The translations under genes were made by a program, and so were the position numbers. A stretch of DNA of 64,000 bases. Origin: Nemertoderma westbladi. Taxonomy: Eukaryota; Animalia; Xenacoelomorpha. The notes beneath the pieces are model-generated. The model searched no databases and was not told the DNA's origin. It was given only the letters and a program-made list of their open reading frames with translations. Location: NCBI GenBank assembly GCA_032718475.1, contig JAUCBJ010009143.1, positions 1 through 64,000 of the forward strand, given 5' to 3'. Below are positions 12,674 through 53,970 of the stretch, in pieces (position 1 is the first letter of the stretch; each line of letters begins with the position of its first letter).

Positions 12674-12683
12674 CGTGCTTTAC
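12674..12683 (-). other. Non-tRNA primer-binding position of A (sense GTAAAGCACG), complementary to own LTR 13630-13639
   Basis: The + strand reads cgtgctttac at 12674-12683 and gtaaagcacg at 13630-13639; no TGG follows the LTR. Confidence 0.7.
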
Positions 12684-14798
12684 TGTTAAACAAACTACCC
12701 CGGCCTAACCAATAAAGACACAAAACTGCTCTATTTATTAGACAGGGCAATCAGGAGCGTATTATTGCTAATGTGAGGGGCTGCTAAATACAAAACCACT
12801 ACTTACCGTTAGATGGCGCTAACCTGCCGTCCGCTAATATGTTTTACTAATTTTCTACGGCTCCTGCTAATTTCTTGTTCCTTTCTCTACCAATTACTCG
12901 ATAGAGAGCTAACTGTTCGAATATATGAGCCACGCGGGAATAACCAAAACAACAAACCCGAATCGGCTCCCTAAGCTGACTTAAAACGAGTGTGAGAGGT
13001 TTTACACTCAGAGTATATTCTTACGCCTAATCTTACTGTTAAAGTACGCCAATGCCTACGTCTTTTCTAATCGCGAATACTGGGGGTTCCCTAACGGAAT
13101 GTGTGAATGCGAGAATATTTAAAATAATCGAAGTGGTACAGTGTTTATTAGGGCTAATACCTATAGTGGGACTAAACTTGTCTGCGGCTGGCTTTAGGCC
13201 AGCAAATTACTAATGCGTTTTGCGTACTGAATACTGCTATCTAGCTTATTGCCCGCTAATTCAAATAACCGCTCAGCGTGAATAGTTTACGGTACTCTAA
13301 TTATTACCTTAGCTACTCTCCGCTATGCTGCGTACTAATTCTTAATTTTACTAATTAATTACAGTCACAAATATGTAACAGCCTAAAATACTGTATTACT
13401 TTGACCTAATCAGTAATTATTTACAGTAAACTAAGAGATAGAAATCAATCAAAGGGAAAAGAGCGCCTATCTAAGCATTCGTAATCTTAGGCACACTTTA
13501 GTAACACACCAATCAGCGTCAGCAATCACAGCTCGCAATGCGCGATTCACAATTGTACAATCCGCAATGCACGCAATTCGCAATTACACAGCACAATATA
13601 ATAATTCGCAATACATGCAATTCGCAATTGTAAAGCACGCAGACCTCTCCCGGGTACATCTAGGCTTCCTAACTAACCCAATTCCTGCCCCCCTAATACT
13701 AAATAGAGACAAAACCTGGATCATCAGCCCCCTAATTACTGTACCAGCGAGCTGCCCCCACGCTACAATGCAAATTGCCCGACCGCAACGGTGACCCCCC
13801 GCCAGCGTTGCTCGCCTTTGAATCCTCCGCTCCCTTCGTCGCTAACCCCCCGATGTGCCCACCGCCCACTGGCGCCTTAGCCCTCCATTATGCTAATAGC
13901 TACCGTAGCGGCGCATGCAAATCACAAAGTCTGACAGTCTCAGAAATCCCTTAGGATTATTGCGCAGAAAGGAATCACATAGAACCATTAATCAAAAGGT
14001 AGAAATCATAGTTCCAGTTGTAATTTGCAGTAATCGAAGGAATTAATTGAGAAACACAATCAAGAGTAATCGCACTAGCAAAGCATTTTGAGATATTAAT
14101 CGAAAATAGCAAATTGCAGAAATACGCTAAAATATCCGTAAAAATGAATATAGACAGCTCAGCAAGTACAAGGGTGATAGCAGATCATGTGAGGTGTCAT
14201 GTGAGGCTCTACCGGCACACCGCCAATTTATAGGTGATCCGGATGGGGTGATGCAATAGGGTGACTCAATCGCTCTCCTATTGGCTCTCCAGTCCGTGCT
14301 AGCATTAGACCAACCTGGAAGCAGTTAGTCCAATAAGGAGGCCGGATTGTAGCCCTATTGCCTGCCCAAACCTCAAATTATTACCATATATGGTAATGGT
14401 TCACGTCCCTGGCTGCTGAGTGGCCAGGACAGCGTCCCTATATGCTAGCCCTATCGATGCTAATATCAGCAAGCACAAAATCCAGGGTCCGAATAAACTC
14501 GCTACCCTGGAACTATCTACATATATCCTAATACAAAATTACGTAGGTAGGGCTACATACTATACAAAATGGATGGATTCAAATATATGGGCGTTTTCGA
14601 TTTCCCTATCTAAATACCACTGCGTTATTATGCCTTATCTAAAATATTATGCTGCACAACGGACTAATATTACGTACAGTATAACGGACTAATATTGCAT
14701 ACTGCATAACGGACTAATATTGCGTACAGTATAACGGACTAATATATTATACTGCATAATGACTAATATATGTGGATACAGCGCCATATACCGTAACA
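12684..14798 (-). repeat. 5' LTR of element A (~2.1 kb)
   Basis: TGT...ACA termini; right part equals 1-963; left boundary inferred from alignment to the homologous LTR starting TGTT at 53971. Confidence 0.82.
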
Positions 14799-15055
14799 CT
14801 GACAGATAGGACTGTAATGTAAGTCTATTACAAACCAAGTACATCCCTGTGTACTGGAGCACTGCAGTACCAAACTGCAGAAAGGATACACTAAACCGGT
14901 CAGTAACGCCTGACTCCCGAGCCCCAGTAATGCAGTGTAGTTCGGTGTTACTGACCGGTTTAGTGTATCCTTTCTGCAGTTTGGTACTGCAGTGCTCCAG
15001 TACACAGGGATGTACTTGGTTTGTAATAGACTTACATTACAGTCCTATCTGTCAG
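14799..15055. repeat. Perfect 109-bp inverted repeat with 39-nt loop (foldback/MITE-like), target of insertion A
   Basis: 14799-14907 is the reverse complement of 14947-15055. Confidence 0.92.
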
Positions 15056-15505
15056 TCTGTAGGTGGGTGGAGTTGCTCGGTTTCATATAATTTAAATTAG
15101 TTGTTTAGTGCAGTTAGCTAGGTAGTACATTAGTTATATTTGAGAAAGTTTAGTAGTTTTTTTTTTTTAGTTCAGTAGTCTATAGTTTAGTAGTGCTTTA
15201 GTTTATTTGATAAAGATTATGTAATATAATCGAAAATTTATAAACTTTTTAGCGTTTTACCATTTGGGAGTTAGTTCCGGCAGCGGCAGAACAATTAAGT
15301 AAATATATATATATATATATATATATGTATACATACACACACACACCCCCACACACACACACACACACACATTGACTGAATATATATATGCTTTATTTTA
15401 ATATACATAATGATATATAGGTGACCCCGCGCCCGAGCAGAAACATTAACCATCCACGTGGCTATTACGTGGCCTATATGTAATAAATATATACGTGACC
15501 CCGCG

Positions 15506-22276: not shown

Positions 22277-24052
22277 TTAGTCTTTCTTGCGCGGACGGCG
22301 TTTACGCAGTTTCTTAAGGCTAGCAAGAGTCCTTTTCTCTTTGGGGCGAGCCACTTTACGAGGAGGGCTGTAGCTCCTAGGCGAAGGGTGCAATATAATT
22401 GCATCAGAAGGTGCAGGGTTACGATCGGTATACCCGCCGGTCGAAGTACCTGGTTGATTAATATCAACCTCAGTGGAGTGAGATCTAACGGCCTTTAGAG
22501 CGCGTCTCAGGACAGCAGCTCCAACGGGTCCTTGACGGGTCGTCTGGACACTAGCGGTGGGTGGACCGTGAGTAGTGAGGAACTTTCTCGGTTTAATGGT
22601 TCTCTCCAGCTCGCGTTCTCGGGTTCGATATTCATATGGTCGCCGAGATATTTCCTGTAGTTCAGGATGCGAGTTCACAAAGATGTCGCCATACTCCGGG
22701 TCCTGACGGATAAAATTGATCAGGTGATATGTGGTTATATCATTAGGGTTAACGTTTCTAAGGTATTTCCTGACAAACTTGGTGGAAATACACTCACCAA
22801 CACGCTTTATTAACTCGTAACTTGGTACGCGTGTTTTCTGTTCAATCGACGCGAATAGGTAAGGATGGAACGCGTAAACTCCCTCGTAAGCTCGTCCAGG
22901 GTAATAGCGATGTCGGGATTCGCAATGTAAATCGGCGTTCGCTTCCCAAGCTCGGATGTATCGCAGGGTGATCATCTCGTCTACGCTCTCTAAATCGCGA
23001 TTAAAGGGACAATTGTAACTTTCGTGTCCTTTAAGCTGGCAGTAGTGACATTGAGTCATAAATTGTGGGCAGACGGCAAATATATGAGAGTTATTAAGCC
23101 GGCAATAAGCACAATATATTTCCATCATCGGTTGTTCGAGGAAATAGGAACAAGGTACGCTCGAGTCTAGAGGAGTGAAGTGGTCTCTCGATGCGCATAA
23201 TCGACAACGTTTTCGGGAAACGTAGTTGGCGTGTCGATAATCGTACGCTGTGAGACGCTGTGGACCTTGATACCACTCTATGACATAATCATTGTCACTG
23301 TTCCGAGAAGTTGTAGGCTGAATCGCTTCTGATTCCAAGCACACTGGTTCATCCTCCAGTTGTATAGACGAAGTGGGTGCGTCTGTCTCAGTAAGTGGAT
23401 CCACTGTCTGTATTTCCACGACAGAATAACCTGTAGGTATTAGGGGTCTTTGTATAACAGATGAATGTGAGTTCTGTATACAAACGTCTTGAAACACGGC
23501 AAATCCAGCGCTACTCAGTTTCTCCGCAGCTGAGTCTCTAAGACTGAGCTTGGTCAGCGCGCGGTCCTTGAACTGACTATCGACGTTGCGGAACGGAGTC
23601 AGAAAGCGCCGGAAACATTCGAAACGTATGAACTTATTGTGTTCGTCTAACTTGGCGAGTTTAGTTCCAAGTATTAACGGATGAGCGCGTATGGTACGAC
23701 TGCACACATCGGCTAGCCAACCGGCAAGTGCTGCGTTTTCAAAGATCGTGTATATAGCTAAGGAAGGGCGAAGGGGAACACTCATAAAGCTATATACGGC
23801 ACCAGGCGCAGTTAATGGTCCATCAAAATATAAACGAGAGTAATGATCTCCATATACTTGCTGGTAATTTATAGGATTTCCAACTTTGAAATTCCAACCA
23901 TATTCTTGAAAGGCAAGATGTCCGATGGATGTCCGTTGTACTTTAGTAATGCCGCTGGGTGTATTGGCATACATAGTGCGAAAGAAACCTCGGCCTTCGG
24001 CCCAAGGAGCAATCAGCTGAGTATCAACGAAAGGGTATGGAATGTTCTCCAT
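22277..24052 (-). CDS. Accessory ORF2 of C, C-terminal part: end of exonuclease-like domain plus 3 zinc knuckles and a basic tail
   Basis: PFVDTQ..WA and GHLAFQEYGWNFK...YQQVYG align with B ORF2; CRLC..H, CAYC..H..C and CHYCQLKGHESYNC knuckles; WEANADLH motif. Confidence 0.8.
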   Translation of the reverse strand: MENIPYPFVDTQLIAPWAEGRGFFRTMYANTPSGITKVQRTSIGHLAFQEYGWNFKVGNPINYQQVYGDHYSRLYFDGPLTAPGAVYSFMSVPLRPSLAIYTIFENAALAGWLADVCSRTIRAHPLILGTKLAKLDEHNKFIRFECFRRFLTPFRNVDSQFKDRALTKLSLRDSAAEKLSSAGFAVFQDVCIQNSHSSVIQRPLIPTGYSVVEIQTVDPLTETDAPTSSIQLEDEPVCLESEAIQPTTSRNSDNDYVIEWYQGPQRLTAYDYRHANYVSRKRCRLCASRDHFTPLDSSVPCSYFLEQPMMEIYCAYCRLNNSHIFAVCPQFMTQCHYCQLKGHESYNCPFNRDLESVDEMITLRYIRAWEANADLHCESRHRYYPGRAYEGVYAFHPYLFASIEQKTRVPSYELIKRVGECISTKFVRKYLRNVNPNDITTYHLINFIRQDPEYGDIFVNSHPELQEISRRPYEYRTRERELERTIKPRKFLTTHGPPTASVQTTRQGPVGAAVLRRALKAVRSHSTEVDINQPGTSTGGYTDRNPAPSDAIILHPSPRSYSPPRKVARPKEKRTLASLKKLRKRRPRKKD

Positions 24053-25284
24053 GTTCCCATTGTATGCCTAATATGTTCTCCGACAGCGATGGTAGAGCAG
24101 AGGAAAAACTATTTCGCATTCTGAAATATTCAGAAATAAGATCTCAGTAGGAGGATTGTAACATTCGAGTACTATCCCCAACCGAATTTATCCCCAGTGT
24201 GATGAGGTAAACATCAGCTCAAAGATATGTTTGCCTCAGTTGTTCTACATAAGATTTATATCCCCAATCATTAAGGGAGGTGAACAACCAGATTTATGAC
24301 ACATAATGGTACCAGTTATTCACAAACTATCCGCTTGTCCTTTCAGTCCTTGTTTCACGGTTGTGGACTTGAGGAAATTAGGAAGTGGTTGATTATCTAA
24401 TCAAGAACGAGAGGGTGGAAGTTGATATCATAAATATCAACAGAATATGACATGGACAAGAGGTGCGGACACCAATATTAGCATCCAGATGAACAGTAAG
24501 GGCTGGGAGGTTTAGTATTCGTTTCCCGAAGCTCCGAGCGCGTTGGGAAGAGAAGGTGAGGAGATTTATTAGGATGAGGTATGATCCATACCACGATACC
24601 ACTATGATTGGTCGATCGATGAAGGGAGTAAAGAGGAGGAAGGATATAGGGTAGTATCCATAAGACACCACAATGGACAAGTTTTCCATCACGTCATCAT
24701 TCATTCTTGTCTTTTAATTGTGACACTGATCACAATAATTACAGGAAAACGATGAAGGAAGAGAAAGTTACAGCCTCCCGAAGGAGACCGCCCGCGAGCA
24801 CCCGTGCCCCGGGGAAAACTATTCACATTATGGACCCTGGACATTAACCCATGTCTCTTCTCCAGTGGTTCTCCTTTATTTGTCCGCATCAACCTTCTTC
24901 CACGTTCTATCCTTCGAGTTAATTTCGAATAGGGTTCTCGTGTTCTATTCTCGATTTATCGTTTCGACTCCGCTGGGCATGATATTTAAATAAAACCATT
25001 TCCCTTTCGGTGTCTACATCGTCCGTATCGTGTAAATCAATAGGATGACCAGTGGTCAAGAAGTCCATATACGTACCATTACGATGAGTGTAGCGAGCAG
25101 TGAACTTTCTATAATCCAATTCACGCGTAAGTTGCTCCTGGGACATTGGCGGTTCGATATAACGACCATCGTCCTCCGTAGTAGTTGGATCAGCGTCGCC
25201 GCGTATCAAGCTATCGACAAACGCTTGTAAAGGTAGAGTATATCTCTCCCTGATACCAAGATCATCTTCTATTAATTCAGTCAT
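24053..25284 (-). pseudogene. Probable disrupted N-terminal part of C ORF2
   Basis: ATG-initiated ORF 24919-25284 followed by broken frames; position matches the B ORF2 N-terminus and there is weak similarity (VRTSCPCH vs ILTRCPAH). Confidence 0.45.
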
Positions 25285-26932: not shown

Positions 26933-28946
26933 TTAAGTTGGGGAGTCCCTAGATGTCGGTTGGATTAGGGAAGTGGTCGTGGGAAGAGTTTCTTGCCTTC
27001 CATAGTTTCCGGAGAGCTCTCTGTCTCTTTCCAGTAAACATAAACGTCCCACTGGGCGATTGAGCTGTTGAGTCTCAAAGACTATCCCTGGTTTCTTAAA
27101 GTTCCGCCGCATGACGACGAGCTCTACTGATCGCACCAAACCATCGCTCGAGATATAAGTCTCGATGATACGTCCTGTTTGCCATCGCTTACGTGGGAGA
27201 TCGGGGTCCACAATAAGCACCATGTCTCCAGCGCTGACGTTTTCTTGCTGCGCAAACCACTTAGTTCGAAGTTGTAGAGTGGGCAGGTAATGTTTCTCGA
27301 AATGGTCAGCGAAACGACGGGATAGCAACTGCATAAGTTGCCAGGTTCGACGGCAGTACTCGTCTCCGTCTGTGATCTCCGATCGCGGGAGCATGGCTAC
27401 GGGTTTCTTCAGTAGAAAGTGCGCGGGTGTTAGCGCTTCCAGGGAATCAGGATTTGAAGAGACTGGCATAAGCGGTCTTTCGTTGAGATAGGCGGCGATT
27501 TCCTCCATTAACGTCCGCAATAGTTCGTCGGTGAGATAAGCGCGACAAGGCACAATAAAGTGGAACGCAGTCTTCACGCTCCTAATCAATCTCTCCCAAC
27601 TTCCTCCCCACCAAGGGGCGTCGGCGGCGTTGAAGGTCCAGCTAGACGCTGTTATCCTTAGCTGATCGTCCACCTGTCTTTTGTTCCAGTCCTTTACGTA
27701 AGCTTGAATTTCGTTGTTGGCGCCAATGAAGTTCGTTCCCTTATCCGATCTCATCGTGTTACTGGTTCCGAAGCGAGCGATCTGTCGTCGTAAACTCAAC
27801 ACGAAGCTGTTGGTGGAGAGATCGTTTACCATATCGAGGTGGATAGCTCTACAAGTCATACAAACGAAGATGACACACCATCTCTTGACTATAGTCCGGG
27901 CACGATATACTTCAATAGGGCCAAATAAATCCACACCGGTATTAGTAAAGGGTGGTTCATAGAAGCTTACTCTTTCCCTAGGTAATTCTGCCTCTCGCTG
28001 TGTTAAAGGCCTACTGAATGCTTTCCTACAGGGTATGCAGTTCCTAAGAACTTGGTTCAGAGCCCTACGGGGTTTATAAAAATAGTAGCGAGTTCGAATT
28101 TCGCTCAGAACTCGTTCTCTACCAGCATGGTACAGTTTGCTATGAACATCTACAATTATCTTGATTTGTATGTCAAGATTTCTAATGAGGATGGGAAACT
28201 TAGTGTCAAAGGATAATGGAGCGTTGGTCAATCTACCTCCAACACGTATTAACCCATCTATCATGGTACTAGAGAAGCGATCCCTTAAGCGCATCTGCGG
28301 ATTTCTTAACAACAGGAAATACTTATCGGAATCCTCATAGCATTGTAGGAGTCTCAGCATCTGTTTGTTGGTTTCATCATGCTCCTGGTAGCTGATCTTC
28401 TCCTTTAGAAACCTGTCGGATACCTTGTATTGTGGAAGATCTTTAACAACATGGACTCGTGCAGATGTTGATGGAGCCTCATCACTATGAGTCTTTGTCC
28501 CGGAGTAACGATGATGAAAACATCGTTTTAAATAGGTGACAGCTTTACAGAGCCGATTCCAGGAACTGTAGTGACGTATCGCTCTCTGCAAGAGAGGTGA
28601 GAGTCCTTGCGCGATATCTGGTATTCCAGATTTCCAATCCTTGTCACGGATTTCCAAGACTTCTTTAGTCGTGGCGGTGGGTTTCTGATCCAAAGCATCA
28701 TCTCCGGAAGTAAATAATACAGATAGATCAACTGCAGGTTTAAACAACTTCGATTTACTCGCTCGAGTTTTGAGTTTAACTTTCTCCGCTCCCTTGGCCT
28801 GTCTGATCTCTGCTGTTGTGAGATGGGGAGGCCATTCTTCTTCTTCTCTGTAGAGAAAGTCAGGTCCTCCTAACCATTCGGGAGTATTTACCAATTCCTT
28901 TGGAGTCGCTCCTCGGGACGCGATGTCTGCTGGGTTAATCGTTCCG
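26933..28946 (-). pseudogene. C pol, 3' segment (end of RNase H, integrase), separated from the rest by insertion D
   Basis: NPADIASRG, GVDLFGP, SDKGTNF, GGSWERL and GDMVLI motifs. Confidence 0.93.
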
Positions 28947-29487: not shown

Positions 29488-29496
29488 GTAACTAAA
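29488..29496 (+). other. Non-tRNA primer-binding position of D (GTAACTAAA), complementary to own LTR 29312-29320 / 43059-43067
   Basis: tttagttac inside the LTR; gtaactaaa immediately follows the LTR end; no TGG. Confidence 0.72.
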
Positions 29497-29592
29497 TCGG
29501 TGCTGCTTCCCCAGCTAAACTCAGTAACTAAAGCCAGCTGCCGCCCTAGACAAACTCTATAAACACTAGCCACCGAAATCTGCAGAAGAGAG

Positions 29593-35500: not shown

Positions 35501-38119
35501 GAGTCTGGAAATACGGTTGAGGAGATACTGGAAACAGGGCGCGAGGTTCGCGACATCCTGAAAGGATCCGGCTTCAACCTGACCAAATTCCAATCCAGTT
35601 CAGAAGAATTCATCAAGGAAATAGAAGACAAGAAACCAGAATCGACCATGGACAACCCTACAACAGCCAAAGGACAGGACATGGCGATTAAGAGAACGGA
35701 ATCCCAGCAGAAGGCGCTGGGAATCGTGTGGGATAGAAAAACAGACGAACTGAAGTATCAGCTGAGCCAGGAGGGCGCAGACACCCATACGAAGAGGGGT
35801 TACGTATCATATATAGCAAGAATATACGATCCCTTAGGCCTAGCATCCCCATTACTAGTCACGGGGAAACAGATACTCAAGAGAGTATATAAGTTGAAGG
35901 ATGAGTGGGACGTAGAGGTACCAGAAGACATCAGGAAACAGTGGAGCAAATGGACAGGAGACTTGGAGAGGATGGGAATATACAACATGCCGCGAGTGTA
36001 TTTCCCGGACGGGAACATGACGAATCTGGACCTACATATGTTCTCCGACGCGTCGTTAGAGGCATACGGAGCGGCACTCTATTTAGTACAACGAGAGGGG
36101 CCTCACAAGCCCAGACTAGCCTTCAGCAAAGCTAAGTCAACGCCGCCAGATTCAGCATCTGTTCCCAAGTTAGAATTGACAGCTGCGAGACTAGGAGTTA
36201 GAGCCACAGCCTACCTAGTGGATACAATTCCCAACATAGTGGAGACACACTACTGGACGGACTCCATGGTAGTGCTTGGTTGGCTACACAACGAAAAGAC
36301 GAGATACCCGATATTCGTCGCGAATAGAGTGGACGAAATAAGGGCGGGCACAGAACTGGAAAGGTGGCACTACTGCCCAACAGATCAGAACCCAGCGGAC
36401 TTACTGTCGAGGGGCGTGGAACGCCACACTTTCCTGAAGAAGGAAGTATTGTGGCAACATGGGCCACAATTCCTGAGCGATAGGGAGGCCTGGCCGCCGA
36501 TGAGGAAGGTGGAACCGGGCTCGGAAGTAATATCAGAAGGAGAGGGAGATTCAGAGGGAGAAGAGATATACTCCCAGATGGTGAGGGAGATCAGGGACGT
36601 GCAACCAGGAAGGGAACTATGCGACAACCCGACGGATAAACTCCTCAGCTACAGTTCCAGTTGGTATAAGACCAAGAAACTAGTGGCGTACTGGAGAGCC
36701 TTTGGGAATTTCCTTGCGGGAGTCGGCAAGGACAAGAAGACCAGGATAACCATAGATCTGGAAGGAGCGGCCAAGGCAGTGATCCGCTATGAACAACGCA
36801 AGAACTACGGCGACGAGGTGGAACGTGTCGGTAACCAACAACATCTCCGACGTGATAGCGAGTTGATCACGCTGTCGCCACAACTCAACGAGGATGGGAT
36901 CCTAGTAATGAATTCTAGGGTAGGATATAACAATAGTATAGTCGTGCTGCTGAAACCCATCATCATTCCCACAGGATCGCCTATAGTCCACCAGATCATA
37001 TGGGACTCCCACAAATCGATACTGCATGGGGGCACCAACCGAACCCTCACAGAGATAAGGAGGACCTATTGGGTCAAACAATTAAGAAAGAAGGTGAAAG
37101 CGGTAGTGGGACAGTGCCAGACCTGCCGACGAGCAAAGAAGGAGCGAGCCGTACAGGAGATGGCGCCACTACCGGCGAGTAGGGTAAGACAGCACGACCC
37201 GCCATTTACGCATTGCGGTGTGGACATGTTCGGGCCGATAAAGATCAAGGTGATGCGACACACGGAGAAACGCTACGGTATTATCTTCGTATGCAACAAT
37301 ACGCGGGCGGTAGGAATAGAACTCGCCCAAGATGCAACCGCATCAGCCTTCATTAACGCCTTAGAAAGGTTTAGGGACCGCAAAGGTGGGACGATCGCAG
37401 TGATATACAGCGACAACGGCACCAACTTTGTGGGCGCAGAGAGCGAGATGGCAGAGGCCTTAGACATCTTGGAGGGAGAAGAAGTCAGGGCGGCCATGAG
37501 AAGACGACAAGTGAAGTGGGAGAGACGGACGCCGTATGCACCACATACACTAGGATGCGTCGAAAGACTAGTGGGCAGTTCAAAACGTCTAATGACGAAG
37601 CTGATGAACACCCACATGGTCACTGAAGACGTCTTACGGACAGTACTTGCGAAGTGCGAGGGGATCATTAATAGCAGACCGCTATACCCGGAGAATGATG
37701 ACCCTGAGTCATTAGACGTGTTGACGCCTAGCCATTTCCTGATGGAAAGGCCAGCGACCATAGATATGCGGGGTGTAGACCCAGATGATATACACTCCCG
37801 CCAAAGTTGGAAAGTAGCTAAAGCAATTAGCGCAGAGTATTGGAGGAGGTGGGTAGAAGAATACCTACCCACGCTCCATAAGCGAAGCAAGTGGAGGAAG
37901 CCAAACAGGGAGTTGAGAGAGGGAGATCTCGTAATCGTCACGGATGATACTATCATCAACAACCAATGGCGGTTGGCGAGAGTTGTAGGCACCTACTCCG
38001 ACGAGGACGGAAGAGTCCGATCGGTAGAAGTGCGGATAGGTGGAAAGATAGGTGCGAAGGACAGAAAAACCTACAGGAGAGCGGTAGGTAAATGCTGTCT
38101 TCTAGAAGGGGCACCTTAA
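29593..38119 (+). CDS. Bel/Pao Gag-Pol of D, broken into three frames, probably at poly-G runs (~31910-31920, ~32780-32790)
   Basis: Glu/Arg coiled coil, PFKFDG Gag core, CSRCVKSGHKAREC knuckle, LVDSGA, YVDD, FSDAS, GVDMFGP and SDNGTNF. Confidence 0.9.
31528..31745 (+). repeat. 39-bp coding tandem repeat (QGAEGLVGHVVSR, about 5.5 copies) in D gag
   Basis: Directly visible in DNA and protein. Confidence 0.9.
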
Positions 38120-38945: not shown

Positions 38946-39448
38946 AGTTAGAGAGAGAGAGTAAGAGGTAAAAGGGGTAAAAATAGGATATAGATATTAG
39001 ATAGCAGTAAGTAGAGTTAGTAGCGAGAGGGGGGCATATGAGTGCAGCTGGATAAATCGTGTGGCCACACGACGCATACTGCTGTACTGCATAGGCCCAC
39101 TGAGTAGGCCAGAATATGGATCAGAGAGAGAATAGAATAAACCCATAGGCAGCAGTAAGTACTAGGACAGTAGAATCAAAGCAAAATAGATAAATAAATA
39201 GAATAGGGCTAAAAAATCGAAAATAGTGGTAACACAAAGAAAGTCGTTCTAGAACATAATAAAAGTAACGGACGGAAATTGTAAATTAGGCTGATTTACT
39301 AGCTCCGAAATTAATTAGGTTAAATTAAGCTTGAAAGGCGCAGTTAAGTAGAAAAGTAGGCCATTATCGAACTGTAGGAAACATCTCAATACATCACTCA
39401 TCTGTATTGCGCCTTGGTAAGGCACCACCCTACAGGTGAGCGAGTGTA

Positions 39449-41992
39449 GTGTTCGGAATGGCGAGTAAGCTGATCAGGAAGAGAAAGGCGGAGTCGGGAG
39501 GAAAAGAAATATTGGTGGATTTCACCGAAAGACACCCGGAGGAGAAGACGAGAGGATACTACGAGAGGTTGGAAAGGGGTCACGCGGCACGAGCGCTGCA
39601 GGATCACTTCCGGGAGGCGCACGAACAGCGGTTGGTCGGGACCTACGGGACGCCGTCGCTGGACAACGCGATCTTCCAACACTTCCACTACGTGGTGAAA
39701 GGAGACGAGGCGAAGTTCGGGATTCCGAAGTATCCGAGGGAATCGCCGAGGAAGGACTGGAAAAGATTCATAGAGTCCGTCAACAGAGGAGGATATATGA
39801 TCCTAGATGACGAGGGAACCGTGGAAGACGAAGCGGGTTCGAGACGAGGAACGGCAGGGTCGGCCAGGACCATACTCTTGCATTTGGCAGCACCAAATGG
39901 GGACATCTTCTTATTCGACCTAGGGACGTATGGGAAGAAGGACGGGCCGAAATTAGACCGACTGCCGAAAGCGGTACAGGTTTTAGTAAGAGAGAAGTCG
40001 ACGACGAAAGTGGGATCGGCGATTCGCGAGGACGCGGAGAGGATCATCGGTCCGGACGCCACCAACCTCCTGGATATGCAGAAAGTCTTTACGGCTATGA
40101 CGGCACCGGATGGATTGGGGGTGGTCGAGAACTCAGGCCAATGCGGGGCGGTGGCGATGGGCCAATTATTGGGGCTCGTATGCCACAAACCAATGGATTG
40201 GGGGAAGTTTAGGGAGGAATACGGAGCAGAACTAGCGAACTCGCTGAAGTGGGGAGCGAGACCGGGAAAGCAGGAGGTATATCAGTTTCGCAGAGGAGCG
40301 ATAAAGGTATATCAGAAGCGATATATCCTGCAGGAGGACTGGATGATGATAAGTTTACTTAACTTATTCATGACCGTAGTTATTGAAAGAGAACCAGGGG
40401 CATTTCTGTTATCGGGATCACCCCTAAGCTACAGGAGAGCCTTTAAAGTGGCCTTTGACGGTCTGGTAGACCACCCGGGGCTGAAGGGCGAGTCGGTGTA
40501 CTACAATAGCCGACATCTGGTAGATGGGGAGACAGACACACCGTATCAGAGATGGGAGCAGCTAGAGATGGATAGACGGGAAGCAAAGCGACTGGAAGAA
40601 GTCGCTAGACGGGAGAGGATAGAAGCAGAGGAGAGGGAGGAGGAGGCCAGGACACAGAGTTATGGCTTCGAGGAACAGGCGGGCCTAGACGAACTTCATT
40701 GAACTTCGTCGGGGAGTTCGGGGGAGTCTCTAGGGCGAGAATTGGGATGGACGGTGGGATCGCCGAAACAGTCGACGTCGGGGTTGCACGCGATGCCCAT
40801 ACCAGCGGGCGCCGAGGGCGACCAACCGCCGAGGAAGTTAAGGGAGCTAGAGGGATGGAGAGCTACGGGCGAGAGCCAAGGCGGGAAGGGACATAGTGGA
40901 TCCACCGAGATACCGGGATTGGAGACACTACCGGAAGAGGAGGACGACGACGACGAGTTCGGAGAGATACCGCCCATCGAGAGGATAGGCCACTCGGACA
41001 CGGACTGGGTTGGCGGGAGGGTGGTGACGGCCAGTGGGGCGAGGGCCTTCTGGAACAGATCCGGCAAGCGGACCTGGGTGCACGAGGGGCCGGCGATGGA
41101 TTTCGCGGGGAGCACTATCAGGTTGGGCGAGCAACCGGGGACGGCACCACGGATAGTATTCAGGGAGACAATGCCCGAGAGGGGCGGAGAGATCGACGTA
41201 AACAGGGAGAGCAACGTGGAGAAGTTTGCCTACCAGCGACTCCATAGACCGCGGAGATCGCTTGGGACAAAGGACGAGGTGGGACGCGAGACATTGGTAC
41301 TCGGCTGCGACTACTGTGGGAGACAGACCCATCGGGAAAGCAGCTGCCTATACCGGTTCCAACGGGGAACCTTTTGTCTCTATTGTGGAGAACCAAGTCA
41401 CAGGATGGGGGCGTGTCCACGGTTGCATAACCGATGTCCAAAGTGCCACTTTCGGGGACACTACGGGCGGGAGTGCGACTGGATGAGCGACGAGGAGAAG
41501 TTCACGAGGTTCGAGGAGTGGGCCGACGTCGGGGCCATGACGCGCCAGCGCATGAAGGCCCAAGAGTTCAAGTGGGGTTTCTTCCTCATAAACCAGGAGA
41601 CCCACATGGAAATCATAAAGCGAAGGTTACCGTTTACCTATCAAGAGGTAGCTACGGCGGCATCGTTCGCCGGAGTTATGAACACGCAACGGTACCTGGA
41701 CAGGTGGACACCAGAGAACCGGAGGGAGTTTAGGGATTTCTTGGCGGAACACGTGCCAAAGGCAATGAAGATGATTCTATGGGACGCCACACGAGGGAAA
41801 CAACCAGGCCATTCTGAGGGGCCACCGGCGAAGCGGTATCGGGCTTTAATAACACCAGCGCCCAAAGAGCCGACGACCGGGATCAGCAAGGAAGTGGCAG
41901 CGAAGGTCCGGAAGCAGAAAGCGGATGATGCCAGAGGAGCAGTGATAACCAAGAAACGGGCCAGGGAAGAGGACGTGAGGAGGAACAGATAA
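39449..41992 (+). CDS. Accessory ORF2 of D: DEDD-like 3'-5' exonuclease plus 3 CCHC knuckles; single in-frame TGA at 40700-40702
   Basis: ILDDEG (ExoI), LPKAVQVLVREKSTTKVGSAIREDA (ExoII), LLDMQ, YILQED (ExoIII-like); CDYC/CLYC/CPKC knuckles; both ORF halves share one frame. Confidence 0.82.
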
Positions 41993-42693: not shown

Positions 42694-43234
42694 TGTTAGC
42701 TTATTCAATCCCGCCAACACCCCATAAAGTTGTAAGCCGATAAGCAATATTGGGAGCCGCGAGATTGGGCAATTAACCAACTCGCGCCATCCCAATAAGA
42801 GTGGGAAGGAAGCACACAATAGAGGGTCAGGGGCCAAACCCCTAACCCAGAGAGAACACAGTGGAGTGAACGGGAATACTCCACGGGGCGCCAACAAGGG
42901 TATTAACCAATCAGAGGGGGGAATGGTATCGATTGAGTAGCAATTAGGCCAACCGTGCAGTATAGCCACTTGGCAGTAATATTACCTATTCAGTTATCAC
43001 AGTGCAGCAGTGCTAGCGTAGGGTACAGCCAATTAGTTTAGTTAGGGGATCACGGGACTTTAGTTACCGTATCCCGCCTTGTACACATTCACTATATATC
43101 TATATCTTATAACCTCCTATTATACACCGAACTTCAGAACTCAGTCACTTTATTTCATCCTTATACACGGCGGGGACGCGTGGACTAAATTACCACAACC
43201 GGATAAATCGGGATCCCTCTTGGATCCCGTCACA
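42694..43234 (+). repeat. 3' LTR of D
   Basis: Preceded by the PPT and followed by the TSD. Confidence 0.98.
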
Positions 43235-46200
43235 TTCCGGGGCAATGTCTCCATTGGTCCATCGTCGTGCGACTAAGTATGATGGCTACCCTGTTGGTAA
43301 CGAAGACGCTGAACTGACAGACTTCATTGGTTATATACTCTAACACGAGTAAAGCGTCGGTCCAATAGACAGTTTTCTCTAATGTATAGTCAATCTGTTC
43401 GGTTACATTCCGGCCGATGGCTGTAGCGTATAGAGCCGCCTTTAACTCCGCTCGAGGAACTTTCAACTTGTTGTTGATTAATGCCTTAGAAGTAACCAAG
43501 GCGACTTTGATTCCATCCGGAGTTTCCACTCTTAGGTAGGCTACTATACCGATTCCCATATCGCTGGCGTCTCCAAACACATGGAGTTGATAGGAATACG
43601 TAGGGAGAACATGACCAAAATATGAACGGGAAATTATAAAATCCTCGATGGCTGGCAGAGAATCTTCCCATTTCATCCACTGCTTCAGTAATTCCCCCTT
43701 AAGTGGATCGTCCCATGAGTGGTTTTCAAGCCACATTTGTTGTACCAAACTACGAGCAATCAATATAACTGGGCTAATAAATCCCAATGGATCGAAATAA
43801 GTGCTCAGTATACTTAAGCAAATCCGTTTGGTTCGAACTGGATTATCTCGCTGTTTTAGCTGGAAAAACAGGATATCTCGCTCTGTGTCCCATTTCAAGC
43901 CGAGTGTCTTGGTTTCTGGCAGATCATCTTTGATCAAATCGAGATCTTTCGCCCCTCGATCTTCCGCAGGGATCGACTCCAGAAACTCACGGGAGTTGCT
44001 GGTGAATTTGGTTAATCGAAATCCACCTCTTTTTAAGCACTCTACCGTTCCCTTAGCGACCTCAATGGCTTCCTCAACTGATGGGAGGGACTTCAGATTG
44101 TCGTCCATGTATATGTCTCTCTTGATGTTGTCGATCACTTCCTTAGAGAATGCCTCTCGGTTGTCCTCTGCAGTAGTACGCACTACCGAACAGGCGTTGG
44201 AAGGGCTTGAGATTATCCCAAAGGCCTGGATGGTCATCCAGTACTCCACCGGTTTCTGGTTGAGGTCTCCTTCGGGCCACCATAGAAATCGTAAGCTATC
44301 TCGATCCCTATCTAACACCTTGACTTGTAAGAACATGCCTTCTATATCGGAGGCGAAAGCAATCGAATATTGTCTCAATCTTAAAAGAATTCCCAACAAA
44401 GATTGAAGCAAGTTGGGTCCGGGTAACAATTCAGAGTTAAGGGATTGACCCATGTAAAGAGCGGAGCCATCAAACACTACTCTCACTTCATTTGGTTTAC
44501 CGGGTTTAGGAACGTAATGGTGAGTTAAATAATACGTTCTTTCAGTCACAGGTGTTTCTTCCGGTACCCTCTCCGCGTATCCCTTACTAATAAATTTTTC
44601 CAGCTGTGTTTGATACATTGCTTTAGCTGAAGAATTAGCTGTAAGGCGTCGATGGAGTTGCGCGATTCTTTTTTCCGCCAGGGGTCTGTTATTTATGAAC
44701 TTCGGTTCTCTCTTGCGAAAAGGTAAACCGACTTCATACCTACCTTGATCTTTGATGAAACGTGTAGTCGTCTCTTGGATCTGCTTGGCCCTTTCCTCTT
44801 CCACCGACAAGGCTTTATCGTAGGAATTGGGCTCTACCGCCTCTTGCGTAAAGAATCGTACAGCATGTTCATCTCGAGTCTTGGCATTGCAACGTTCAAT
44901 GACGTCATTTAATTCGTCGTTATAAGCTTCTCATTCAGAGGGATAGAGAAGTTGACATAAGTTAACTTGGTTTTGCCAAGCCTCGTTTTCCTTAAGGAGA
45001 TCGATGGTATTCTCCTCATCAAAAAGCTGGTGAACGTCGTCGTTATCTGAGGAGTATGGAATTCCCTCAGTTGAATCGTCTCCTTCACTAGTATCATCTT
45101 CCCATTCACTCACCTGGCAGACTCTCTCTTGCGGTAGTCTTTCTCTGAGTGTTCTACGGGAAGGGCCAGTAAAGTACCAACCTACTCTAGTTCTTACCGC
45201 ATAGGTCTGTAGGGGCTGCGGTTGAGCAGGCCGTTTCTCTAATGTCTCCAGCGCCTCATGCGCGTTTTGGCCAATGAGTATTTGCACTCCAGGATAATCA
45301 GTCTGGAATCGAGGTATGTAAAGATGTTGGATGCTCTTATCCTCGTCCCAATTATAAAGGTCTGCTTGAGTAGTAGCGAAGTTCTTTATAGCCACCATTT
45401 TCACTGACCTTATGCTGTTTTCTCCTAGTTCGTCCTGGGGGGTGGACAACGCTCCTACATAATAATCAGCTGTTATTGTAGATTTCCAAACTTGCATAAT
45501 GCCTGACATGTTGAGCTTAGTTTGGAACTTGGGTTGTCCAGCAAATATATCTTCGGCTAACTCTTTATCGATGAATGTTCCTGTGCTGCCGGAGTCCAGG
45601 AGGGCGTTCACTACATAACTCCTCTTAGGTCCGTGAACCCTTACTTGCACCACAGGAAACTCTCGGATCCCTACATTGGAAGATGGTTCTTTCCAAGATG
45701 GTTGTCGTTCAGAAGTAGTTAGAGTAAAGTCGTTATCTGGATCCTTTTCATATGTGAGTGCTCGATACACTGCGGTATTTATCATGTAACAGGATTCGTT
45801 TTCGTCGGAGAACTCGTCTGTATAGAATCCTTCCATCTCAGATTGATCAGTGTCGTTCACATCACTGAATTGGACATGTAGCTCGGAATCACTTACCTGA
45901 TTCGGACTATTTCGATCGAATTCAGCGTGCAACAAGATATGATGTTTCGCACCACACTTTGCACACCTTATGTCAGAGAAACAGGTTCGCCGTTGGTGTC
46001 CTTGTCTGAGGCAATTATAACATAACCGCTTATCCCACATGACTTCGCGTCTCTCTGTTAATGATTTCTTTAGAAATTCATCACACCTATTCAAATGGTG
46101 GGTCCCGTCGCACAGTGCACATTTCGGTTTGATGTTACTTACCTTATTTTGAGTCACATTGTGTACACTTGCCTTTTCTTCGGGCTTTCTCACCTGAATT

Positions 46201-49200
46201 CTCTTGGGAGACGTGGGAGGAGTTTTTCTTACCTGTTCCCTCCTGTCATTTGTTCGAGACTTGAATTTACTTACCTGATCTTTAGGCATTTTATTCACGT
46301 AATAAGATCTATCCGTGTCCTTCCCGCTATCTTCTCCTTGAGAAGTTTGGCTTTTGCCGTCATCAGTATAACATACTGGTGTTACCTTTCTCCTAGAGAC
46401 GGGTTTTTCACTTACCTTGCTTTCCGGTGTCTTCTCTCTGGACAGTTTCAGGAGCTGTAATTTCACTTCTCCATCTAGGAATGACATGAGATCGGCCATG
46501 GTAGGGTCTCGCCGTTGTTGTTCCATCATATATAACACTTTCTTATCCCAGCGTGTACCTACTCCACCTTTAGGTAAAGTAGAAGCCACTGCTCTAATAA
46601 CCATAGTGTTCTGATACTCATGAGACTTACCTAGCCAATCTAATTGTCTGCAGATCTCCTGGATCTCATCGGAAAACTCGATAATTCCACTACTAATAAA
46701 CTTTCGGGGCGCTACTAACTTTGCATATAAGTACCCAGCGATATTATTCCTATTACCATAGCTGATGTTTAGTGTATCCCAAACTTGTCTTAATCCGTCT
46801 GGATGTCCAATAAACTTTAACGCCATTAACTTGGGAGATCCTTCCAAGCACTCGATGAGGTATCTAAGTTTTTCTCCATTAGATAGTACAGAGTTCTGTA
46901 TGTTATCTTTGTAATATTCATTAAAAGGTAACCATTTCATCTCATCTCCATTGAACTTGACGATCTCTCCAACCTTTACCGCTTGCCGGGCTTCGGTTCT
47001 AGCCATTTGACGCGTAAAACTTTCTTGGGCCATCGTGTTATTTAATATCGAATTATCGGTATATAAATTTCTCGGATTATGATCCGGTCTATAGGGAATA
47101 TCATTATCAACAGGTCTATAATTACCCTTAATAGGGTTCACTATAGGAGTTTCTACTTCGCTAGCAGTATAAATGCGTGTAGGCTCCACACCTTGCGCAT
47201 GAGATACTTCAGACCTAACGGGTTGACACATTGTTACAGAGGGTGGTGGTATACCCTTTTTTAAGTTTACTAATTTATCGCGTTCTAACGCGATACTTTG
47301 CTGCACTTCTTGCAACTCTAACTTACTTTCCCTCACTGTTCCTTTTAAATGTTGGACAGTCCCTTCCAACTCTCGGACCTGTTGGGAAGAGCGTATCCGA
47401 TTCTCCTTCATCTCTCCTAGGAGAATATCCATCCCCCGCCGTCTCTCGTCTACCCAATCAACCGCCGAAACGGGATCCGCCAACGTCGTAGCGGGCAGAC
47501 GAGGGACAACGGGCGACAAATTTGGAATATTTCGCTCGGGGTCCAGGACCTGAACTGTCTCCTGGGCAGTTCTACGGGGCACAGGTAGCTTAGTGCTATG
47601 CAGAGGGAATTTATAGGTAGCTTCAGGGAGCACAGGTGTACCTATTACCGAAGGGGTGATTTCAAGAACAGGCCTACTTATTTCAGGCTCATCTACTATA
47701 GTAGGGAGTCTTTCTATTGTAATTATTTGGTCTGTGGGTTCTGTACTCTCTAAGTTGGTGTTATTTAGTTGCCTTCTAACAGCTGGAGGCAAATCAGGCA
47801 ATTTCTGACGGTGGAATGTTCTTTTACGTCTGCTTAGGCGGGATCGATTTCCTCCGCCTTCAGTGTCGGTGGTATCGCCTTCCTCAGATGATGTATAACC
47901 TTGTCGTTTGGGAGTAGATCGATTCATCATCTGCATATTACTAGCTGTTAACTGTTTATTAAAGTTATCTTGCCTCTCTTGAAGATTTTCCAACTCTAGT
48001 TGGGTTGTCTCTTCAGATGCCCTCCGTTCTGCTTCTGCCACTGCTATCTTTCTTTCCGCTTCTGCAGCTGCCGCTTTTGCCTCTGCCGCTACCGCTTTCC
48101 TTTCCGCTTCTACAGCTGCAGCTGCCGCTTTTGCCTCTGCCGCTGCCGCTTTTATTGCTGCAGCTGCCGCTTTTGCCTCTGCCGCTGCCTCTGCTGCCTT
48201 TCTTTCCGCTTCTGCCGCTGCCACTGCCGCTGCTGCTGTCTTTCTATCTTCTATACGTTTTTTCCTTACTTGTTCTTCCTGTTCTCTAGCGATGCGGAGT
48301 TGTTCATCGAATTTAGCTTGGTTCGCCGCTAACCTATCCACATCAATCGCATCTAACACAAGTTTGGCTCCTTCGCTATTAGGGCTAAGTCCCTCTAGCC
48401 TTCTCCTCAACTCTTCATCTCCCAAAAAACGCTGATAGTCTGACAGATAGATATCAATGGCATCCTTCTTATGCGGTTTCTCTGCCGTCGCTTCACTTTC
48501 CACTTGGGAAAAAGTAGCGTCCGTCGATTCTCCATGGGTTGAGCGCTCTTCCAACTGAGCTTTCCACTGAGCTGCTCCTTGAACCTGGCGTCTCACCCTT
48601 TGAAGCCAAGTCTTTACGGCAACTTGCAACGACGTGTCTTGTCTTCTTTTAGAAGCCTCCTCAAAGGCGGATAAGATTAGCCTAATTCGCAGAACTCTTT
48701 CTCTAACTTGATAAAGCAGCTGTCCCTGCTCTTGAGGTCCTTGAGGTTGTTTAAACAGTTGTCTTTCTACTCGCTCCATAGAGCTGAAGAATCCCTGTGC
48801 GTATCCGGCTGCGGACCTCTTCCATACAGCTGGATCGATGGTTTCCTTGGCTACTCCCATCCGGTGTATGTCTTCCCAGGCATCTTCTGATAAATCAAAC
48901 GGGAGTCCGGGTCCAGGGAAGTTCCATTGCGACTCGACAATAGACTTCAATTCTTCCCTCGTGTACCCCGCATAACTATCTCTAGTTGATCGTTGACTCC
49001 TCGCCCAATCGATCTGGTGTTCTTCCACCGCGATCAATAACCTAGTGAGTACGGCTGCAGGAAGGGTGAGAAGGGGATCCGTATAAACCGCATCCGTCAT
49101 CTCTGCTCCGCGCTCGGGTGTCAGCTCTACAGTATCCTCACTACTGGAGCTGCTGGGCCGCTGAGGAATAAGTTCTTGACTCGCGGGTTGTTGCTGTTCC

Positions 49201-49415
49201 GCTGCTTCTTGGTCCCGCTTGACCTGAGCTCGAGTGCCTATGATAGACCTACGATGTTGGACTAGCCTAGGTTCTGTTATTACTACTGGAGGGATGACCT
49301 TCCTCACAGTGGGAGGTGAACTGGATTTACGACCAGACGGTTGTACGTCTCTATCTGAGTCGCAGATAGTTACATCTAATATACTGTCTGACAGGTTCTG
49401 CTTAGTATCAGACAT
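43235..49415 (-). pseudogene. C gag-pol, 5' segment (Gag, PR, RT, RH) with one in-frame TGA at 44931-44933
   Basis: ORFs 44931-49415 and 43230-44810 share a frame; three knuckles, LLDSGS, YMDD and FGDAS; WRHCPG|TINPAD is restored across D. Confidence 0.93.
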
Positions 49416-50718
49416 GACTATGTATACCGTTGAATGTCTACTGCTGTATTACAGTCTGAGTAAGTCTAGTAACTCAGTATTAACTGCTAGCCTAGTAATT
49501 AATTACCGGTACTGCTACTCAGTGTAGCGTGATATATAATATATTAGAATACCGGTATGCTTATAGTATATATAACTATTATTACAGACTAGGTTTATCA
49601 CAGAATACCGGTATAATTTTAGCACAAATATATATAAATATATAATAGGCCTATCGGAATACCGGTATACAGCTGACAGTTTGTAGTGTATATAATTCTG
49701 GTCTAGAATTAATTACAAGTACCGGTATAATTTCAGCCTAAATTTATATTATAATAGGCCTATCGTAAATACCGGTATATCAATTATTTTAGAATAATTG
49801 AATTTCTGAACTTTAGGGTTACTTGGTTACTTTAACTTACTTTATTACCGTTATTTAAGCAGTAGTCCAACTGATATTGAGACCTAATTGGTATATGGTA
49901 GGCCTACTATTTATAAATCGTTAGATTTGATTTATAATATATATATACCCGTTTGAATGGGTTTAGCCAATGTTTGAAATAAATGTTATTATTTCTGGGG
50001 TAATCACTACACAAAGCGGTATGCTTTCAGTGAAGTGTTACGTACAGGACACTAAAACAAATGATTCTAATTTACCTAAGTTACTTAATACTACAAATTA
50101 CGTACAATTCGGGTTGAGATTACAATCTCTAAATAAACACAAAAATTTACAAAAAAAAAACAAAATACGAATTTTTAGGGTAATTTTACAAGAAGTCTAC
50201 AAACCAGCCTAACGAAGGGTTAGAATTCTGGTTATTACAACGGACAGGGTACTACGGTATTTGAAATAATAAGTAGTAGTAAATACACTGCGTTGTCCAG
50301 ATAGAAAAATACCACCGCCTGACGACCTATAGCCGTATCGCTATAGGTTCTACGTTATGTATCACGGAGTGTTCCTACCTAGAAGTTAATAGAGCTAATC
50401 GAACGTGCCTATTAACCACTTTACACCACAAATGTAATGCCTACAATAATTACTTTCGGAAAGCACTGTACACTAAACCCTAAATTAGGTACGAGTACTT
50501 GTACAACAGATAATCAGTAGTTAAATATACTTGAACAGCTAAAAGAACCACGGCATCTGCTGGAGTGACCGATGCACAAAATCACCAGTCTTTACCTACG
50601 CCAAGCAGCCCGTGTAGTACCGGGGTTAATTTAACTATAGCGGTATGTATAACAAACACAATTACTGTAGGAACAAACTTGGGGAATGAATGTTGCGGAT
50701 AATCGCATAAACTCTGAA

Positions 50719-51290
50719 TAATAAATATTACGCTACGCGTACAAACTACTCAAACAAAATGCAGACCGAACACTGACAGACTACTATCAAGCCCAAACAA
50801 ACTAAGGGACATGCAGACTCCGAAATGATTAGGGAGTATGCGCTCTAACCCAGTAGTGCGACTTATTCTTTAGTTGGGGGTTTACCTTACAGCGTTCGCT
50901 GCCCCTACTTCCTAACCGTACTTAATCGGACAAGTGATCTACAAACGCTGCAATCCGTTCAGACCTAATAACAGCCAGACAACTATCCAGCCTACAAATT
51001 ATCTAAATAAATATTATACGCTACCCGTACAGACTTACACAAACAAAGTACAGACTAAACGATGACAGACTACTCTCAAGCCTAAATAAACTACAGGACA
51101 TGCAGACTCCGAAATGATTAGGGAGTATGCGTTCTAACCCAGTAGTACGACTTATTCTTTAGTTGGGGGTTTACCTTACAGCATTCGCTGCCCCTACTTC
51201 CTAACCATACTTAATCGGACAGATGATCTACACACACTGCAATTCGTTCAGACTTAACAGCAATCAGACAACAGCTCAGCCTACAATCGT
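50719..51290. repeat. ~285-bp diverged tandem duplication in the C 5' leader
   Basis: 50719-51005 and 51006-51290 share ggacatgcagactccgaaatgattagggagtatgcg and further blocks. Confidence 0.85.
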
Positions 51291-51647
51291 CTGTACAATC
51301 TGATCAGGTTTACACGCCTTCTGTTCAATACTGGCCTACAAATAAATAAAACTTGACAGAAATAAGTAAACCATATAAAGGAATAAGGGGTGATCAATCC
51401 CTAATCCCTTAAACAGCCTACCGGTATACAACAATCAAATCGAATAATACTAATGTACTTATACGGAAGTACCGGTTAGGACAGCTAGGCCTACGGACCT
51501 ACAGAAGTACCGGTTCTGGCAGTTGGACCTACGGACCTACGGCAGTACCGGTTCTGGCAGTTGGGCCTACTGACCTACAGATGTACCGGTTCAGGTTTAC
51601 CGGTTGACCGGTACTTTCAACTTTATTGCTTACTGCAACAAAGAAGC

Positions 51648-51659
51648 TATATCCTTTAA
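51648..51659 (-). other. Non-tRNA primer-binding position of C (sense TTAAAGGATATA), complementary to own LTR 52410-52421 / 21746-21757
   Basis: The + strand tatatcctttaa abuts the LTR and ttaaaggatata lies inside both LTRs; no TGG. Confidence 0.78.
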
Positions 51660-52862
51660 TGTTCGCGCTTTCAGACCTTTGGCAGTTTAACCCGCCAAAT
51701 TAAGATGTCTTCTAGATATTAAATCGCTTTTTAGCCTATGACAAGTATTTGATTCACTACACTAGTCGAAACCAATCTGTGCGCGACCATTCACCCGCTG
51801 GATATTCCCGGGAGATTGGGTTCGACGGTTTAATTTTATTGCTATGTAAGCCTAATGTATTATTCGACTGACAGTATTATATAATCTCTGACAATATTAT
51901 TCACCTTCGGGAATATTAACAGTTCCTTTAGGACGTGGCGCTTTATTTATATAAACAGAGTTATGACTTAAACTACTCACAACGATATGGCTTAATTATA
52001 ATTCACATATATGGCGCATTCTTTAGGAAATGCTTCTTTAACAGACTCACTCATACACAATGCTGCACAATACTGCACACTAATCTGCCAATCTTCACTG
52101 ATTTTAGTCACATATAAAAGGAACACAGACTGACTCATGTAGGGTCTATCAAATAACATTAGATTCACTTCAAACCACTTTAACATAAGTCACAATCGTT
52201 ATTGGTAACTTTTCTCTCTTACCTTCGGTATATCAAGAATATTGGGTGTCGGGGTTATTTCTCGTTATTCCAATATAATAATTCATCAACAAATATAATG
52301 AATAACCGACAACAAATAGCAGTATACGGTATTGATTGAGCAGGTAATTTTAGCAGCAGTTATTCAAGTGATTAAAAGCCAGTTTGCTTGAGTTAAGACA
52401 ATCAGTCAGTTAAAGGATATATGTCCTTATAATTAAACCTACTAGTGTTGAGCTAAAAAGCAGAAAGCACAAAACACTAAAAAGCCGTTCTTTCGTGGCT
52501 TTGAAAAACTCGTGACTACTGCTCTATACGAGGATACCAACTCCCTTATTCCACGAAGCTCCCGTTCAACACAGAGAAAGAGCAGTGAGATAGGAAAATT
52601 TCAGTTCAGTAGCTCTGTGATAGGTCAAAATCAAGGCTAACTCAAATTCTATTGGGAGATACAAAAACAAGGCTATGACGCAACCTCCCTAGGCTTGTTG
52701 GCCGATTAAACAGAGCCCAGATGCCTGCGTACAGCAAATCAGCCAATAAGCTGGTAACTTGCACTATTTTTAGCTATAGATCCCTTTTGAGAGTATTCTA
52801 GCGACTGGGGGGGAACTGGCCAACAAGGCAAACGAATCAGTTATCCCACAAAAGCTTTTACA
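51660..52862 (-). repeat. 5' LTR of element C
   Basis: Direct repeat of 20996-22198, followed by the TSD GTTTA. Confidence 0.97.
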
Positions 52863-53950: not shown

Positions 53951-53970
53951 CTCTATACTAACAGCAGAAC

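Follow-up and report, generated by a model that had tools for sequence, protein, structure and literature searches.

BEL/Pao retrotransposons (Belpaoviridae) are described by the International Committee on Taxonomy of Viruses (ICTV) as being primed by a host tRNA via an 18-nt primer-binding site (PBS), and their replication has been called poorly understood (PMC8742986). Among other elements with long terminal repeats (LTRs), Tf1 has been shown to prime itself, and the same has been proposed for Tj1, sushi, Tcn1 and TAR copia elements, according to the accessible parts of the reports (PMC4600332, PMC6317226). Here we describe a 64,000-nt stretch of DNA from Nemertoderma westbladi (GCA_032718475.1, contig JAUCBJ010009143.1, positions 1 to 64,000; hereafter the window), which is a nest of animal retrotransposons: the BEL/Pao elements A, B, C and D and a long interspersed nuclear element (LINE). 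In A, C and D we observed no tRNA-type site after the 5' LTR, and the bases that directly abut the LTR are complementary to a segment within that same LTR.

Tf1, with Tj1, is the precedent for self-priming (PMC4600332, PMC10085805). As far as the accessible text of these papers goes, Tf1, Tf2 and Tj1, the wider Tf1/sushi group and plant Tcn1 have the same arrangement as A, C and D, in that there is no tRNA site and a short PBS immediately following the CA of the LTR can base-pair with a segment located upstream, within the element's own LTR; the Tf1 RNA is depicted as a three-duplex "pretzel" around the PBS (PMC10085805, in the part available). Unlike this Ty3/gypsy group, A, C and D encode BEL/Pao proteins, have a loop of up to 946 nt and show no pretzel arms, and that their segment forms the RNA 5' end is something we only infer. 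We conclude that A, C and D work like the Tf1 group but are not members of it. For TAR copia elements (Houba, Osr-1), the accessible part of one report predicts self-priming from complementarity of at least 10 bp that begins 0-5 nt after the LTR (PMC6317226). Elements A and C reach this length, and D, with 9 bp, falls one bp below it. The TAR lineage is of plant Ty1/copia type, with a domain order other than that of A, C and D. With the BEL/Pao elements of the ICTV description, ours share a Pao-type gag-pol, TG...CA LTRs, a purine-rich tract and 5-bp target-site duplications (TSDs); they differ by the absence of the 18-nt tRNA site, by an LTR of 2.1 kb in A versus 0.2-1.2 kb, by lengths above 10 kb in C and D, and by an extra open reading frame (ORF) that is not env-like.

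The initial annotation of this DNA had suggested that self-priming was undescribed in BEL/Pao elements, and our search of titles and abstracts agreed with this, finding no such report in a body of literature from which most subscription journals, including those carrying early BEL/Pao descriptions, were absent. In the main text of a survey of BEL/Pao elements, the words PBS, primer and tRNA do not appear (PMC3118150), and the Sinbad paper mentions neither PBS nor tRNA (PMC554778).

Pairing of the primer-binding position with the element's own LTR

The features on which the comparison is based are as follows, with +1 denoting the first base outside the 5' LTR.

14798-12684, minus strand: 5' LTR of A, 2115 bp, TG...CA; 954/965 columns identical with the partial 3' LTR at 963-1
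12674..12683, minus strand: primer-binding position of A; no TGG; 10 bp complementary to own LTR from +1
13630..13639, minus strand: putative self-primer segment of A, LTR position 1160-1169
52862-51660, minus strand: 5' LTR of C, 1203 bp, with LTR pair and TSD
51648..51659, minus strand: primer-binding position of C; no TGG; 12 bp complementary from +1
52410..52421, minus strand: putative self-primer segment of C, LTR position 442-453
28947-29487, plus strand: 5' LTR of D, 541 bp, with identical LTR pair and TSD
29488..29496, plus strand: primer-binding position of D; no TGG; 9 bp complementary from +1
29312..29320, plus strand: putative self-primer segment of D, LTR position 366-374
54997..55006, minus strand: counterpart in B of the A segment, differing at 4/10 positions

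None of the three elements has TGG within the first 9 bases after its 5' LTR, so that the 18-nt complement to a host tRNA 3' end by which Belpaoviridae are described is not present. What we observed instead is a PBS of the Tf1 type, adjoining the LTR end and complementary to the element's own LTR. In A, 12683-12674 pairs with 13630-13639 through 10 Watson-Crick pairs plus 2 G-U pairs; in C, 51659-51648 pairs with 52410-52421 over 12 bp; and in D, 29488-29496 pairs with 29312-29320 over 9 bp. All three runs begin at the first base outside the LTR, where the offset profile also peaks, and the segments lie 946 nt (A), 750 nt (C) and 167 nt (D) from the LTR end. The three sequences differ, and pairing across families reaches at most 6 bp. 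The pairing is in exact register, as the initial annotation had proposed, and specific to the own LTR. The LTR ends of C and D are set by their LTR pairs and 5-bp TSDs. The LTR end of A at 12684, which that annotation had inferred, matches the similar 3' end of the LTR of sister element B, and one contig (run X5) departs from the LTR exactly at this position. Contigs placed on A indicated a large and variable family, in rows that covered neither the PBS nor the segment.

Dinucleotide-shuffled LTRs reached the observed length in 8/2000 trials for A, 0/2000 for C and 9/2000 for D, and shuffled leaders, with offsets of 0-5 allowed, did so in 1/200, 0/200 and 1/200, respectively. Composition-aware estimates of chance were 1.9e-3 (A), 3.2e-4 (C) and 1.7e-3 (D). 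By this measure, the C match is less rare, by a factor of about five, than the initial annotation had put it. Other leader positions reached the same length at 10/1334 in A, including 11 bp at +28, at 0/2110 in C and at 2/963 in D, where the PBS motif recurs at +37; the counts for A and D caution against over-reading the individual matches. This second copy (29524-29533, 36 nt downstream) is complementary over 10 bp to the same LTR segment. Taken together, the own-LTR pairing of A, C and D holds up as a real feature, beyond what chance would give.

The A segment sits at the end of a block that is 96% identical to B, beyond which the two sequences diverge. Since the B counterpart differs at 4/10 positions beside this block, there is a sharp prediction for the B PBS, which lies outside the window.

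RNA folding predicted that the helix would form if the RNA begins at or near the segment, with flanking hairpins that keep the PBS open. For an RNA starting at the segment, the predicted probability of the segment:PBS helix was 0.93-1.0 in each of the three elements, with 167-946 nt of LTR to be bridged. On its flanks, a hairpin was predicted at the end of the LTR and, for A and C, a second, strong one soon after the leader begins. In D the helix was present in both the minimum-free-energy and centroid folds (z -2.96).

12693..12752, minus strand: predicted hairpin at the LTR end of A, leaving the PBS open, pair probabilities 0.85-0.98

Splice-junction complements in relatives from other animals

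We compared these elements with 80 BEL/Pao loci from metagenome contigs, 58 of which were scanned; in the other 22/80, the upstream DNA was too short or a usable match was lacking. GT-AG introns in these relatives were predicted from sequence only. At six loci the LTR ends were defined by repeats, and 5/6 of these, while lacking TGG, showed complementarity of 12-15 bp to a predicted GT-AG junction of their own LTR (0-1/200 shuffles). The sixth, L060, has a TGG-type site at +6 (within positions 1-80 of the locus), so sites of the tRNA type and of the self type occur side by side in one part of the tree. In the wider scan, 19/58 loci (16 families; L012 doubtful) had complements of at least 10 bp (range 10-15 bp), versus 0/58 and a maximum of 9 in a reverse-strand control whose splice-site density was not matched exactly. 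Many of the 39 negative loci probably lack an LTR. When five LTR ends were set by guess in a narrower scan, 2 were positive and L013 stayed negative; L023 and L070 were positive only under the looser rules of the wider scan.

Loci with a PBS complementary to a predicted own-LTR splice junction (5' or 3' LTR and PBS): L005-L008, L015, L017, L019, L023, L026, L029, L043, L047
Further such loci: L052, L057, L064, L065, L068, L070, L073, L075

In the relatives, the pairing takes in 4-7 bases of the predicted second exon and begins 1-5 bases after the LTR, and the complements differ in sequence among the 16 families. It starts with GT or AT in 17/19 relatives, likewise in A and D. Between the primer end and the PBS there is a poly(A) hexamer in 15/19, and in 2/19 there is one upstream, within 45 nt. 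Like A, C and D, these elements have no TGG and an own-LTR complement at the PBS, and, as in A and C, poly(A) downstream; they differ in that the complement spans an intron and that there is no extra ORF, whereas the complement in A, C and D is contiguous. A complement created only by splicing has to function as RNA. A splice-built primer for A, C and D was considered and rejected, the best spliced match being 4-8 bp versus 9-12 bp for the contiguous one. Our best reading of the sequences is that the primer would be contiguous in A, C and D and assembled by splicing in many relatives.

Trees were built from 117 and 56 rows, selected from 270 proteins and 80 loci. A and C were sisters with support of 98-100. 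D formed a long branch, which stood apart from A and C in one tree and joined them at 88-92 support in another, such that a single lineage of A, C and D is only weakly indicated. The spliced-type loci were scattered over the rest of the tree. It had originally been suggested that tRNA-independent priming marked one BEL/Pao lineage. The self-priming part of that suggestion stands as the best explanation, now with comparative support from other animals; the restriction does not, as own-LTR complementarity extends beyond a small lineage, many other BEL/Pao elements having it across a predicted splice junction.

Candidate mechanism and its alternatives

We consider it probable that A, C and D prime themselves in the manner of Tf1, with cleavage of the element RNA supplying a primer from its 5' region. 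The transcript would start upstream of the segment, placing the latter near the RNA 5' end, and the segment would pair with the PBS in place of a tRNA end. The RNase H of the element would then cut just 3' of the segment to give a 3'-OH, by analogy with Tf1, and reverse transcriptase (RT) would copy U5 and R up to the cut before jumping to the 3' LTR, where the poly(A) signal would lie downstream of the segment. Possibly the PBS is also re-copied from the primer in each cycle, so that segment and PBS would drift together; this would explain why the pairing is kept rather than the sequence.

The regions around the segments contain the following candidate signals.

14226..14232, minus strand: TATA-like box of A, preceded by CCAAT and located 593 nt upstream of the segment; shared by both B copies
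13698..13712, minus strand: 3'-splice-site-like sequence of A, 59 nt before the segment; one of 2 strong sites in LTR and leader; kept in B
52452-52466, minus strand: 3'-splice-site-like sequence of C, ending 31 nt before the segment; the sole strong site in LTR and leader
29288..29311, plus strand: upstream helper strand of D, pairing with 29497-29521; as stable in 1/500 shuffles and 0/93 other LTR windows

No clear donor was evident for the acceptor-like sites of A and C; cis- or trans-splicing at these sites could shape the RNA 5' end of the two elements.

Several observations weigh against a Tf1-like route. The motif scan left the transcript start of A, C and D ambiguous: no TATA box was seen about 30 nt before any segment, the best promoter-like motif of A being the one 593 nt upstream, the TATA- and initiator-like motifs of D lying downstream of its segment, and C having neither motif at the expected distance. 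The predicted helices were also sensitive to additional 5' sequence. With at least 20 extra bases the C helix was lost (0.0), and with at least 35 the A helix fell to 0.19 or below; the D helix was lost at +15 to +20 and returned from 25 onward because of the helper strand. Helper pairing in A and C was not above chance, nor were the arms of a three-duplex Tf1 pretzel in any of the three (9-80/100 shuffles match); local hairpins were predicted in their place. The D core is just 9 bp (-7.3 kcal/mol). The C pairing starts with TT rather than GT or AT. As for the relatives, they are just 35-48% identical in RT, and their geometry differs (spliced, with offsets of +1 to +5).

Three of the elements and a remnant in the fourth have, on the 3' side, an extra coding region that bears on the alternatives.

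57689..61471, minus strand: extra 3' ORF of B, 1260 aa; exonuclease-like motifs, three CCHC knuckles
22277..24067, minus strand: extra 3' ORF of C; the open frame starts within the exonuclease-like region; CCHC knuckles; E 1e-34 to the B ORF
39440..41992, plus strand: extra 3' coding region of D; a frame resembling an exonuclease, followed by an in-frame stop and three CCHC knuckles
1838..2983, minus strand: remnant in A of the extra 3' ORF, deleted and in pieces (tblastn to the B ORF)

The ORF is common to B, C and D (B-C, E 1e-34; B-D, E 2.5e-6 and 9e-4) and resembles a 3'-5' exonuclease with up to three zinc knuckles. For the first part of the D ORF, 24/30 ESM Atlas matches belonged to PF01612, a 3'-5' exonuclease set, with a score of 0.90, and D-x-E and Y-x3-E columns of acidic motifs could be aligned by eye. 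Searches of Pfam, PDB and homologues gave no match, and two predicted folds were of low confidence (predicted local distance difference test scores of 38 and 36). According to the accessible part of one report, a DEDDy ORF3 downstream of pol, likewise 3'-5' exonuclease-like, is known in the bdelloid Juno and Vesta elements (Ty3/gypsy-like) and in Athena elements (PMC5408684). Those are other element groups, which we liken by description, and the ORF of B, C and D adds up to three CCHC knuckles. The idea that the ORF is required for self-pairing was ruled out: it was found in 0/80 relatives, and 19 of them show pairing.

An exonuclease-like ORF in B, C and D is what might be expected if priming came from the 3' LTR copy, the segment being an RNA 3' end, produced by cleavage or exonuclease trimming, that folds back onto the PBS. 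At the sequence level the geometry fits equally well; moreover, the segment ends on CA in A and B, and the D helper helix uses upstream sequence that is always present on the 3' copy. Yet none of the segments has a poly(A) hexamer immediately upstream, those of A and C being 474-900 nt downstream; other structures outcompete the helix of A and C when long upstream sequence is included; and the relatives pair without the ORF. We regard this explanation as unlikely. A broader version, in which many animal BEL/Pao elements would have exchanged the tRNA for a splice-assembled self-primer and the lineage in the window would use an unspliced one, its 3' end finished by the element's exonuclease in a route unlike that of Tf1, seems to us equally doubtful. 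That priming relies on a host RNA, such as half of a tRNA or another small RNA, with the LTR pairing serving as a switch that hides the site or as an aid to packaging, would agree with the ICTV description of the family as tRNA-primed (PMC8742986), with half-tRNA priming in copia lineages as reported in the accessible part of PMC6317226, and with the TGG site retained by L060. The absence of TGG argues against a mature tRNA 3' end, three unrelated sequences would require three host RNAs, and the junction complements differ among the 16 families of relatives. The tRNA consensus has U33 and a purine at 37; compared by eye with this consensus, the three sites offered no Watson-Crick register for an anticodon-loop end, the C site giving 7 pairs with one G-U. 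A host primer thus appears improbable as well.

Chance, or a by-product of repeats common to LTR and leader, is largely refuted already and is by far the least likely explanation. A and D alone have p ~0.004, the A leader contains the longer match noted above, and the pairings were picked from many windows; against this, three families all pair at +1 and none across families, C was matched by none of its shuffles, and 19/58 relatives carry an analogous signal versus 0/58 controls. A self-encoded tRNA-like primer, as is reportedly used by nematode Cer7, was rejected, as the window contains no tRNA and no Rfam match at the family gathering score; 3 weak Rfam matches all lie outside the LTRs of the elements. 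The Tf1-like route remains our preferred reading, and because the putative primers here are contiguous and those of the relatives splice-built, primer location is directly testable by transcript-end mapping.

Anatomy of the nested locus and wider meaning

The remaining features of the elements are as follows.

3745..11241, minus strand: gag-pol ORF of A, 2498 aa, single frame; DUF1759, Peptidase_A17, Integrase_H2C2, DUF5641
22198-20996, minus strand: 3' LTR of C (LTR pair)
43230..49448, minus strand: first part of C gag-pol; in-frame stop near 44931; interrupted by D
26933..28948, minus strand: C pol, integrase part past the D insertion (domain search)
42694-43234, plus strand: 3' LTR of D, identical to the 5' LTR
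32729..38119, plus strand: gag-pol ORF of D, 1796 aa
53971..57211, minus strand: 3' LTR of B, sister of A; B 5' LTR and PBS outside the window

The domains DUF1759, Peptidase_A17, Integrase_H2C2 and DUF5641, together with Y[MV]DD motifs, were found in A, C and D, the order running from protease through RT and RNase H to integrase is that of a Pao-type gag-pol, and PF05380 was present in all top homologues. A domain search of the element proteins gave no chromodomain match, and membership in the Tf1/sushi group was rejected, the proteins being BEL/Pao and not those of a Ty3/gypsy chromovirus. Over RT-RNase H, identity is 45% between A and C and 32-34% between D and either of them. We found no close relatives in protein databases, the best matches being 30-33% identical to D and about 40-42% to A and C; P0121 and P0122 were discarded as close relatives, their high rank having come from several stretches. 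Of 38 pattern matches in viral contigs, 0 were confirmed.

The C and D elements have TG...CA LTRs and 5-bp TSDs (TAAAC and TTCCG, respectively); the LTR pair of C has 3 differences in 1203, and D, with identical LTRs, is inserted inside C pol. The 3' LTR of A extends off the window, and its TSD lies outside. Only the 3' part of B, whose integrase is 97% identical to that of A, is in the window. Its 3' LTR is 3.2 kb, the first ~780 bp being duplicated and flanking a 340-bp unrelated GC-rich piece. The LINE (19408-21006 and 52770-53957) is split by C between its endonuclease and RT parts, and the B insertion is 14 bp away from where the LINE endonuclease frame starts, so that three LTR insertions are nested at one locus. 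Between A and the LINE is a tandem array of 63-bp period (15400-17460). Ahead of the D gag-pol is an ORF (29563-32247; 894 aa) of low complexity, with internal repeats and no Pfam match.

Self-priming in BEL/Pao elements departs from the reference description of host-tRNA priming (PMC8742986). If true, it would be a third independent origin of self-priming among LTR superfamilies, after Ty3/gypsy and, by prediction, Ty1/copia, and it bears on which came first, hairpin or tRNA priming, a question discussed in the accessible part of PMC3601003. Such elements would escape control exerted through the supply of tRNA, and they would be missed by annotation tools in which a tRNA site is mandatory.

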